IMG/VR virus record: IMGVR_UViG_2778261569_000004
DNA: 13,057 bases
Reading direction: 5' to 3' (one strand)
Source of the DNA: a virus
Lineage: Duplodnaviria; Heunggongvirae; Uroviricota; Caudoviricetes
Shown: positions 3,318-5,976 of the stretch, piece after piece
Layout: each line of letters opens with the position of its first letter
Position numbering within the stretch: position 1 is the first letter of the stretch
Program-made: the position numbers and the translations under genes
Notes under the pieces: generated by a model
Told to the model about the DNA's origin: nothing
Databases searched by the model: none
Seen by the model: only the letters and a program-made list of their open reading frames with translations

Positions 3318-3596
3318 TCAGGCCTCGAAGAATTCGCCGTTCTTCGGGGCTTTTTCTTTTGTCAGGATTCTGGCTACTTTCTTAGCCAGTTCCGCCAACT
3401 CCTCGTCTTCAACACCCCATTCAAGAACAGCCAGAAGCATTCCCATTTTGGGGATGAAGCTATCTTTCCATCGCGAAATTTGCGATTCATTAATCCCTAA
3501 CGCGTCGGCAACCTTTCGCTGACCACGTACAGCAATTCGATTCAGGATGTTGCTTGTAATTGCATTCGCTTTCTTGCGAGTACTTGTAAGTTGCAT
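3318..3596 (-). CDS. cII: CII transcriptional activator (lysogeny establishment)
   Basis: Recognised similarity to lambda CII, including the near-identical block SQISRWK...[13 protein letters not shown]. The translation-initiation region TAAGGAAATACTTACATATG matches the classic lambda cII ribosome-binding site, so the start is ATG 3596, not the upstream start in the ORF track. Confidence 0.85.
3323..3360 (+). terminator. Rho-independent terminator on the strand antisense to cII (oop-like terminator)
   Basis: Stem CCTCGAAGAA/TTCTTCGGGG (3323-3332 / 3340-3349, one G-U pair), 7-nt loop, then CTTTTTCTTTT (3350-3360). It lies on the plus strand inside the 3' end of minus-strand cII, the geometry of the lambda oop RNA terminator. 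Confidence 0.55.
3550..3563 (+). promoter_or_regulatory. CII-binding site TTGC-N6-TTGC (PRE-like establishment promoter -35 region)
   Basis: TTGCTTGTAATTGC on the plus strand inside the cII N-terminal codons, oriented to drive transcription antisense through cro towards cI, as lambda PRE does. The -10 element is not confidently identified. Confidence 0.5.
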
Positions 3597-3655
3597 ATGT
3601 AAGTATTTCCTTAACAAATAAGAAGTTATGCGCATCAAATTATGCGCGTTGTATT

Positions 3656-3698
3656 CCCGCATTTCGGCGGGAATGATGACCATGACTGTTAAAGAGCG
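3656..3698 (-). promoter_or_regulatory. nutR site (boxA plus boxB hairpin)
   Basis: On the minus strand just after the cro stop: boxA CGCTCTTTAACA (plus 3687-3698, reverse complement), then boxB hairpin CCCGC-CGAAAT-GCGGG (plus 3656-3671). The boxB sequence is identical to the one at nutL. Confidence 0.6.
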
Positions 3699-3704
3699 GT
3701 GTTA

Positions 3705-3899
3705 CTATTTGTTTTTCTTGTTGCTTGGGAAAGGACGAACTTCCTCTCCAATCACACTGCCATCAGGCTTTACCGTAACCATGATGTTACGGCCTGCCAG
3801 AATGGCCTTGCTGATAGCGCACTGGATTACACCAAAGTCACTGGCTGCTTTAGCCTGTCCATGGATTTTGGCGTAATCGGCAAGTGTCATTCGAATCAT
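3705..3899 (-). CDS. cro: Cro repressor
   Basis: Recognised similarity to lambda Cro (TLADYA..GQ.K.A.D.GV.Q.AI.KAI.AGR.I.....DGSV..EEV.PFPSNKK). Start placed at ATG 3899 with a GGAGAG Shine-Dalgarno 5 nt upstream. Divergent from cI across the operator region. Confidence 0.85.
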
Positions 3900-3929
3900 A
3901 TGCACTCTCCGTTATTAACCATGAACAAA

Positions 3930-4005: not shown

Positions 4006-4722
4006 ATGGAAAATAAAAAATCACTGACGACAGAACAGCTCGAAGACGCTAAGCGGCTTAAGGCTTTGTATGAGTCAAAAAAGAAAGAATTGGGAATAAC
4101 CCAATACTCAATCGCTGATGAACTGGGTATCACCCAAGGAGCGGTAGGGCATTATCTTAATGGCAGAAACGCGCTAAACGTTGAGGTCGCATCTGGTTTT
4201 GCACGTTTGTTGCAAGTCTCAATTGCTGATTTTAGCCAGTCAATTGCTGCCAAGGTTGCAGAACAGGCAGAAAGCCTTAAGAGCGATGCCAACGTAAGGT
4301 ATGCAGGGGAATACAGAGCAGGAAAGAGGTATCCGGTGTTAAGCAGTATCCAGGCTGGCTCGTGGTGTGAAGCATGCGAACCATACACCATTAAAGACAT
4401 AGATGTTTGGCTTGAGTCTGACGCGCATATTCAAGGTAATGCGTTCTGGCTTAAAGTGGAAGGTGATTCAATGACGGCACCGGTTGGGTTAAGCATTCCA
4501 GAGGGAACATTCGTTCTTTTCGATACCGGAAGGGAGGCGATCAACGGCAGCTTGGTCATAGCAAAACTTTCTGACTCTAACGAAGCAACATTCAAGAAGC
4601 TGATAATCGACGGCGGAAATAAATACCTCAAGGGACTTAATCCTGCATGGCCTCTCGTGCCAATCAATGGAAACTGCAAGATTATAGGCGTTGCAATTGA
4701 GACAAAACTAAGGCTGGTTTGA
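4006..4722 (+). CDS. cI: CI repressor (HTH DNA-binding domain plus LexA/S24-type autocleavage domain)
   Basis: Recognised similarity to lambda CI: N-terminal LTxEQLEDAKRLKALYE.KK.ELG..Q.S.AD..G and C-terminal FWL.VEGDSMTAP ... ATFKKLI (Ser/Lys dyad). Divergent from cro. Confidence 0.9.
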   Translation: MENKKSLTTEQLEDAKRLKALYESKKKELGITQYSIADELGITQGAVGHYLNGRNALNVEVASGFARLLQVSIADFSQSIAAKVAEQAESLKSDANVRYAGEYRAGKRYPVLSSIQAGSWCEACEPYTIKDIDVWLESDAHIQGNAFWLKVEGDSMTAPVGLSIPEGTFVLFDTGREAINGSLVIAKLSDSNEATFKKLIIDGGNKYLKGLNPAWPLVPINGNCKIIGVAIETKLRLV

Positions 4723-5751: not shown

Positions 5752-5976
5752 ATGAATCAGACATACATTCCATCATGCTTGAGAAATCTGCCAAAGCAGA
5801 AAGCAAAGCCCCGCAAGCAAGCCATAAAGGACGCTAAGGCAGAGGTTATTGATCAAGCAATACAATTGCTCAGGGAGGAGTTAAGAAGTGGCAAGCTCGA
5901 AGGAATGATGATGCCCTATCAGCGCGGATATCTATCGGCGATTAGTAAGTTGGAAGTATTGAAGAGTGAATTATGA
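5752..5976 (+). CDS. Hypothetical early protein (74 aa)
   Basis: ATG 5752 with a GAGG Shine-Dalgarno, starting 4 nt after the N stop. Basic N-terminus, predicted helical. In the position of ral or kil-type genes but not recognisably similar. Confidence 0.45.
   Translation: MNQTYIPSCLRNLPKQKAKPRKQAIKDAKAEVIDQAIQLLREELRSGKLEGMMMPYQRGYLSAISKLEVLKSEL

Follow-up and report, generated by a model that had tools for sequence, protein, structure and literature searches.

Overlap of the cII start with the PRE promoter in a mosaic lambdoid prophage, and a candidate second CII box within the cII coding sequence

The 5′ end of the cII gene in the window (the whole stretch of 13,057 nt of DNA that was analyzed) raises two related questions. 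PRE is the promoter that is switched on by CII, which results in repressor being made during the establishment of lysogeny. The first question is which of the TTGC-type repeats inside cII serves this promoter. The second is why the translation initiation region of cII is identical to that of lambda when the neighboring immunity genes are not. The region is the cII start and the PRE promoter of a lambdoid prophage, and the two features overlap. The reading favored here, with a probability of roughly 0.75, is that the cII start and PRE are laid over each other in opposed directions, that the primary CII box is at positions 3574–3587 with an auxiliary box at 3550–3563, and that the 20 nt initiation block is a crossover point between modules.

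The window is a mosaic lambdoid prophage whose nearest relatives are Escherichia phages phi296 and phi367, HK620 and mEpX2. The lambdoid map is inverted in it, i.e. cII, cro, O and P are on the minus strand, and cI and N are on the plus strand. The genes and elements that bear on the questions are as follows.

3318–3596, minus strand: cII, 92 aa plus stop, ATG at 3596–3594, a CII/C1 activator of the P22-C1/HK620 type
3654–3698, minus strand: nutR-like element, boxA CGCTCTTTA at 3698–3690 and boxB hairpin at 3673–3654, placed by alignment with the annotated HK620 nutR
3705–3905, minus strand: cro (probable start ATG at 3899), PHROG 35
4006–4722, plus strand: cI repressor gene, PHROG 4

The CII sequence matches the Pfam family Phage_CII (PF05269) with 144.7 bits against a cut-off of 21.3 (E-value = 1e-42, residues 1–91 of the 91 profile positions). 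It also matches PHROG 191 (E-value = 1.6e-37) and, at residues 5–88, the lambda CII structures 1XWR and 1ZS4 (E-value = 8e-24). Protein identity is 86% with P22 C1 and 51% with lambda CII. The lambda activator is a homologue, and the recognition helix of the helix-turn-helix, SQISRWK, is the same in lambda CII, P22 C1 and the window CII. This type of cII is found in 727 of 5,426 complete E. coli genomes.

The start of cII at position 3596, which lies behind a Shine-Dalgarno sequence, yields a 92 aa protein that matches P22 C1 and the HK620 cII product. A mechanical open reading frame at 3318–3683 (minus strand) begins at an ATG further upstream, within the nutR region, and so makes cII 121 aa long; the same extended cII is given in the automated annotation of phi296 (PV189400.1, 41702–42067). 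At the other end of the gene there is a strong intrinsic terminator (14-bp stem and T-run) at 3320–3352 on the plus strand, antisense within the 3′ end of cII. Its counterpart in P22 is the annotated oop terminator, P22 similarly having an oop-type terminator at the 3′ end of its activator gene; Rfam gives only a sub-threshold ctRNA match. Further along the minus-strand operon, the O-like replication gene displays two long direct repeats, GGTAATTTGCTGGTAATCTGCTGGTACA, at about 2655–2755. They look like the ori iterons that are annotated within the O genes of lambda and HK620.

The promoter elements at the start of cII are as follows.

3574–3587, plus strand: primary CII box TTGCGAGTACTTGT (TTGC-N6-TTGT), cII nt 10–23, at about −39 to −26 and flanking the −35 region
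3594–3613, minus strand: 20 nt block TAAGGAAATACTTACATATG, a single exact match, with the Shine-Dalgarno sequence AAGGA at 3612–3608, a spacer and the cII ATG at 3596–3594
3601–3606, plus strand: PRE −10 sequence AAGTAT, 13 nt after position 3587, the same in lambda
3613, plus strand: predicted PRE start point (A), 7 nt after the −10 sequence, placed by homology with lambda

The arrangement is of the PRE type. The boxes, the −10 sequence and cI are on the plus strand with cII and cro on the minus strand, and the promoter reads through cro into cI. By analogy with lambda, cI would be the target of PRE transcription and the PRE transcripts would be antisense to cro. The start point of lambda PRE, for which there is no feature in the lambda records examined, is presumably at lambda position 38343, which gives +1 at position 3613 of the window. 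In the HK544 record the minus_10_signal of pRE is ATACTT, which reads AAGTAT on the PRE strand, and its distance to the cII ATG is that seen in the window.

Several lines of comparison place the primary box at cII nt 10–23. The lambda box, TTGCGTTTGTTTGC, occupies nt 10–23 of cII, is 13 nt ahead of the −10 sequence AAGTAT and is oriented towards cro and cI, as in the window. The records of P22, HK544 and Sf6 annotate the C1/CII site in the same register as TTGCGAGTACTTGT. The annotated P22 site, TTGCGAGTGCTTGT, is of the form TTGC-N6-TTGT and thus agrees with the primary box of the window in form as well as register. The promoter-proximal half-site differs from that of lambda, i.e. TTGT in the window and TTGC in lambda, and TTGT is present in 97 of 104 sequences of the cII subfamily described below. 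In that set the synonymous positions of the primary box, nt 12 and 21, show zero changes. Among 48 distinct 5′ ends of cII genes from a range of Enterobacterales species, 34 have a box at exactly nt 10–23. Two papers give the P22 C1 consensus as TTGC-N6-TTGC/T (PMC2629481, PMC10345575; both citing Ho et al. 1992). A Stx phage is described with one base of the repeat changed, at the same locations (PMC4651098).

One group of CII homologues (L227, L228, L238–L240, L245, L247 and L248), with N-termini such as METTTTRNKDQARKIES, does not have a TTGC-N6-TTGY sequence at nt 10–23 and displays CGAAA where others show CGCAA. The activators of this group may recognize a different repeat.

The 20 nt block is doubly used. 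On the minus strand cII takes its Shine-Dalgarno sequence, spacer and start codon from the block; on the plus strand the block supplies a weak −10 sequence, AAGTAT, and the predicted start of PRE, with the upstream half of the promoter falling within the first cII codons. Lambda has the same 20 nt block at its PRE/cII start, with the Shine-Dalgarno sequence, the ATG, the −10 sequence (on the opposite strand) and the start point. The initial annotation had described the cII initiation region as identical to that of lambda, and alignment with lambda bears this out: identity is 20/20 to lambda positions 38343–38362, with divergence setting in at once on both flanks. The block gave no match in 200 shuffles of the sequence. 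The region upstream of it (nutR/tR1) is unrelated to that of lambda; the nutR-like element is of the HK620 type and not of the lambda type. It was also correct that Cro and CI are clearly not those of lambda, the identities being 63% for Cro and 43% for CI.

Is this identity a matter of function or of exchange? The initiation block of P22 differs from that of lambda and the window at six of 20 positions, and more distant members of the CII family have quite different initiation blocks. Thus function alone does not demand identity at all 20 positions. The further suggestion, that immunity modules had recombined at conserved junctions, was pursued with the exact copies of the 20-mer in a scan of IMG/VR and in fetched phage records, about 125 occurrences. 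The upstream sequences were classed as lambda-type or HK620-type, which are unrelated to each other, and the downstream cII sequences as lambda-type or P22-like. All four combinations of upstream and downstream type are found across the 20-mer (54, 38, 16 and 16 loci), i.e. the four classes of the four-gamete criterion. HK544 and Sf6 illustrate the exchange directly, as they are identical to lambda before the block and identical to the window after it; upstream of the 20-mer they have lambda-type sequence where the window has the HK620 type.

These sequence comparisons support the view that the 20 nt block is a recombination junction and that its identity to lambda reflects exchange there. The block would be the crossover point between an immunity/nutR module and a cII-replication module, and on this reading it is lambda-identical because it is that crossover point. 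Mosaic junctions of lambdoid phages likewise consist of a short conserved block flanked by alternative modules, unrelated or diverged, in all combinations. Unlike the usual junction, the block in the window is not an intergenic linker but serves both as a translation start and as a promoter core. None of this is new for lambdoid phages: the PRE promoter with its primary box, the initiation block with its two uses and the junction between modules are well established, and they are marked in the records of close relatives.

The remaining question concerns the motif to which attention had been drawn at the outset.

3550–3563, plus strand: second CII-type box TTGCTTGTAATTGC, a perfect TTGC-N6-TTGC, cII nt 34–47, at about −63 to −50 and 10 bp upstream of the primary box

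The observation stands in part. The repeat is present inside cII, and its orientation is that of PRE, i.e. it reads on the strand that is transcribed towards cro and cI. Its placement is not that of lambda PRE, a point which is taken up below. The number of such motifs in the window is not in itself remarkable. TTGC-N6-TTGC occurs twice where 1.26 are expected, with 73 of 200 shuffles reaching two, and the looser form TTGC-N6-TTGY occurs three times where 2.3 are expected. The non-chance status of TTGCTTGTAATTGC depends on comparative data and not on the motif count.

The other perfect TTGC-N6-TTGC, TTGCGGGGCTTTGC, is at 5803–5816 on the minus strand, in an open reading frame just downstream of N and antisense to the PL operon. 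It has AGATTT at the place of a −10 sequence, and no site near N was found in the scan of the HK620 genome; the match is probably due to chance. Equivalents of the PI and PaQ sites are not to be found in the window, which has neither an int nor a Q region.

For the comparative analysis, cII genes were collected from contigs chosen as one genome per species and from viral contigs, by searches seeded with divergent homologues. The window protein as query returned only loci of 98–100% identity, and the diversity in the collection comes from the species contigs and the divergent seeds. The subfamily set consists of 104 distinct sequences of 240 nt that encode A-I-x-S-N/K at residues 12–16. They are well diverged from one another: over nt 61–240 the mean divergence is 17%, with values up to 43%. 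The carriers of A-I-x-S-N/K include genes of the Erwinia/Kalamiella type and of the Dryocola/Cedecea type, the latter with about 60% protein identity to the window.

Every distinct sequence that encodes A-I-x-S-N/K at these residues has GCAA-N6-GCAA at nt 34–47. The Ala12 codon is GCA in 104/104 and the Ser15 codon is AGC in 104/104. Other codons of the same set vary freely, e.g. Ala10 (GCG, GCC or GCA), Ala22 and Ala30 (all four codons) and Arg24 (CGT, CGC, AGG or AGA). In sequences of other subfamilies the Ser15 codon is AGT in 40, AGC in 20 and TCT in one, with the Arg7 codon of the primary box, CGC, invariant in all 62.

Numbers of changes were obtained by Fitch parsimony on a UPGMA tree made from nt 61–240, an approach in which recombination within the gene is ignored. 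Third codon positions have a mean of 6.2 changes. There are about 75 degenerate third positions in the 240 nt, and only six of them, nt 12, 21, 27, 36, 42 and 45, have zero changes. Each of the four half-sites of the two boxes has its third codon position among these six (nt 12, 21, 36 and 45). The second box accounts for nt 36 and 45, one in each half-site, and for nt 42, which is in its spacer. Given that nt 12 and 21 have zero changes, the chance that nt 36 and 45 are both among the four remaining zero-change positions is about 0.002 by a combinatorial calculation. Variation is seen in the spacer of the second box and on its flanks, at nt 30, 33, 39, 40–41 and 48. Fixed half-sites with a varying spacer and flanks would be the pattern expected of a binding site. 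On this evidence the second box and the established CII site have one and the same kind of phylogenetic footprint, and the second box is conserved beyond the need of the protein code, presumably by selection at its synonymous positions.

The explanation that the motif is a functionless by-product of coding, i.e. of the peptide Ala-Ile-Thr-Ser-Asn, must be set against this footprint. It agrees with the chance-level count of the motif in the window and with the absence of the motif from P22 and from relatives with Glu12. However, it does not explain why two positions that are free to vary are unchanged in 104 distinct sequences that diverge by up to 43% elsewhere, when adjacent synonymous sites change five to seven times, close to the gene-wide mean. 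Moreover, the constrained bases are exactly those of the two TTGC half-sites, and the constraint equals that on the primary box. A coding by-product is considered unlikely.

A second explanation, that TTGCTTGTAATTGC is itself the CII site at the −35 region of PRE and is placed as in lambda, is very improbable. The motif agrees with the lambda consensus at every base, has the strand that is required and is in the 5′ part of cII, and this was the placement given in the initial annotation. However, it is 37 nt from AAGTAT and not 13 nt, i.e. 24 bp further upstream. It is not the lambda-type site because it occupies nt 34–47, whereas the sites of lambda, P22, HK544 and Sf6 are at nt 10–23. The position equivalent to the lambda site holds TTGCGAGTACTTGT, which had been overlooked, so a box in the right register is already present at 3574–3587. 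In addition, P22, for which activation of PRE by C1 is annotated, does not have the upstream motif. At nt 34–47 lambda has CGAATCGAGAGTGC, which is in no way box-like, and P22 has CTGC...TTGC and hence no perfect second box, unlike the window. A motif that is perfect by consensus is not necessarily the homologous site; here the imperfect TTGC-N6-TTGT holds the canonical position.

It is equally hard to credit that the constraint at nt 34–47 acts on the cII mRNA (its structure, the efficiency of its translation, or a site for a small RNA or protein) and not on the DNA. The box does fall within the first 16 codons, a part of the gene in which translation is often sensitive to the codons used, and the Lys9 codon AAA is invariant as well. 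Against this, no conserved RNA structure is apparent in an alignment of 19 diverse sequences (alifold, −1.6 kcal/mol), and the Ala10 codon, two codons away from the box, varies freely as given above. Selection for A/T-rich 5′ codons does not predict AGC in preference to AGT or TCN, and the constrained bases repeat the CII half-site twice at 10-bp spacing. On the other strand, no overlapping open reading frame of at least 40 aa crosses the motif.

The least probable explanation is a separate CII-dependent promoter driven by the second box with its own −10 sequence inside cII, for which AGTACT at 3579–3584 might be proposed (3/6 match to TATAAT), but this is 15 nt and not 13 nt after the motif, it consists of codons 5–6 that vary freely in the subfamily (AGT/ACC/ACA and ACT/ACC/ACA/GCT) and are not conserved with the box, and a promoter scan gave no promoter for the second box.

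The sequence AAAGC between the two boxes, at window positions 3567–3571 on the plus strand (cII nt 25–29, Lys9 AAA and the GC of Ala10), is invariant in 104/104 and includes nt 27, one of the zero-change positions. Relative to PRE it is at about −46 to −42, and a C-terminal domain of the RNA polymerase alpha subunit is reported to be located near that position on lambda PRE.

The reading preferred here is thus that TTGCTTGTAATTGC is probably an auxiliary CII site, centered near −56. By homology with lambda and P22, a CII tetramer would bind the direct repeat TTGCGAGTACTTGT that flanks the −35 region and would recruit RNA polymerase, and transcription would proceed from about position 3613 through cro, in antisense, into cI. 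The second box would most likely bind extra CII, either as a second tetramer or by way of the spare DNA-binding domains of the first. This could raise the occupancy of the primary box, in which the half-site on the promoter-proximal side, TTGT, is the weaker one.

Some observations speak against an auxiliary role. In P22, the member of the family that has been studied by experiment, the distal half-site is CTGC and not TTGC, and close relatives with Glu12 do not have the second box. Neighboring half-sites of the two boxes are 14 bp apart, which puts them out of phase on the helix. Since P22 and the Glu12 relatives do without a perfect copy, the second box must be dispensable for a working PRE. 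A search of the whole HK620 genome for tandem boxes, with at most one mismatch per box, found them at PRE only; the PaQ box is single. The PI cII site of HK620 (L435), annotated at 1689–1701 on the minus strand, is TTGCCTGATTTGC, i.e. TTGC-N5-TTGC, which is one base under the canonical spacing.

HK620, Sf6 and HK544 share with the window a cII of 98–99% protein identity, the primary box, the −10 sequence and the second motif. Their records, however, annotate only the site at nt 10–23 (nt 1–24 in HK620) (Clark 2001; Casjens 2004; Degnan 2007), and the box at nt 34–47 is unmarked in all four of the P22, HK544, Sf6 and HK620 records. Text searches, with Ho 1992, Clark 2001 and Degnan 2007 outside their scope, gave no mention of a second CII box at PRE. 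It is probable that the second box is new, while the PRE core is known and its description here mainly corrects a site that had been mis-assigned. That the second box works as a CII site and had also gone undescribed until now is a joint claim, and it is put forward tentatively, at somewhat less than even odds.

The same caution applies to the subfamily as a whole. The CII proteins of the HK620/Sf6/Stx-phage type, a large subfamily that has relatives in Erwinia, Kalamiella, Dryocola and Cedecea, could possibly have a bipartite PRE with four TTGC-type half-sites, although the balance tips slightly against it. The boxes of such a promoter would be at about −39/−26 and −63/−50, 10 bp apart. CII would then occupy an upstream promoter region that has no box in lambda, as two tetramers or as the four domains of one tetramer, an architecture of CII activation that is not described for lambda or P22. 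On lambda DNA only two of the four DNA-binding domains of the CII tetramer are reportedly in use, and a bipartite PRE would be a natural test case for a tetramer that engages longer operators. It might also tune the lysis-lysogeny threshold in very common prophages. If the upstream box aids CII-dependent synthesis of repressor, it would affect the ease of lysogenization, Stx-converting phages included.

A final observation concerns the lambda-type cII loci in the collection (L253, L255–L269 and similar). Over residues 7–91 they share 54% identity with the window protein, and they are found on contigs assigned to Shewanella, Kitasatospora, Bradyrhizobium, Tardiphaga, Vibrio, Enterococcus and Pseudoxanthomonas, many of which are short or of low coverage. 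The cII start region that was examined is exactly that of lambda, and on de-duplication it reduces to one sequence (L253). The presence of lambda-type cII on contigs of such unrelated organisms is almost certainly due to contamination of the assemblies with lambda DNA.
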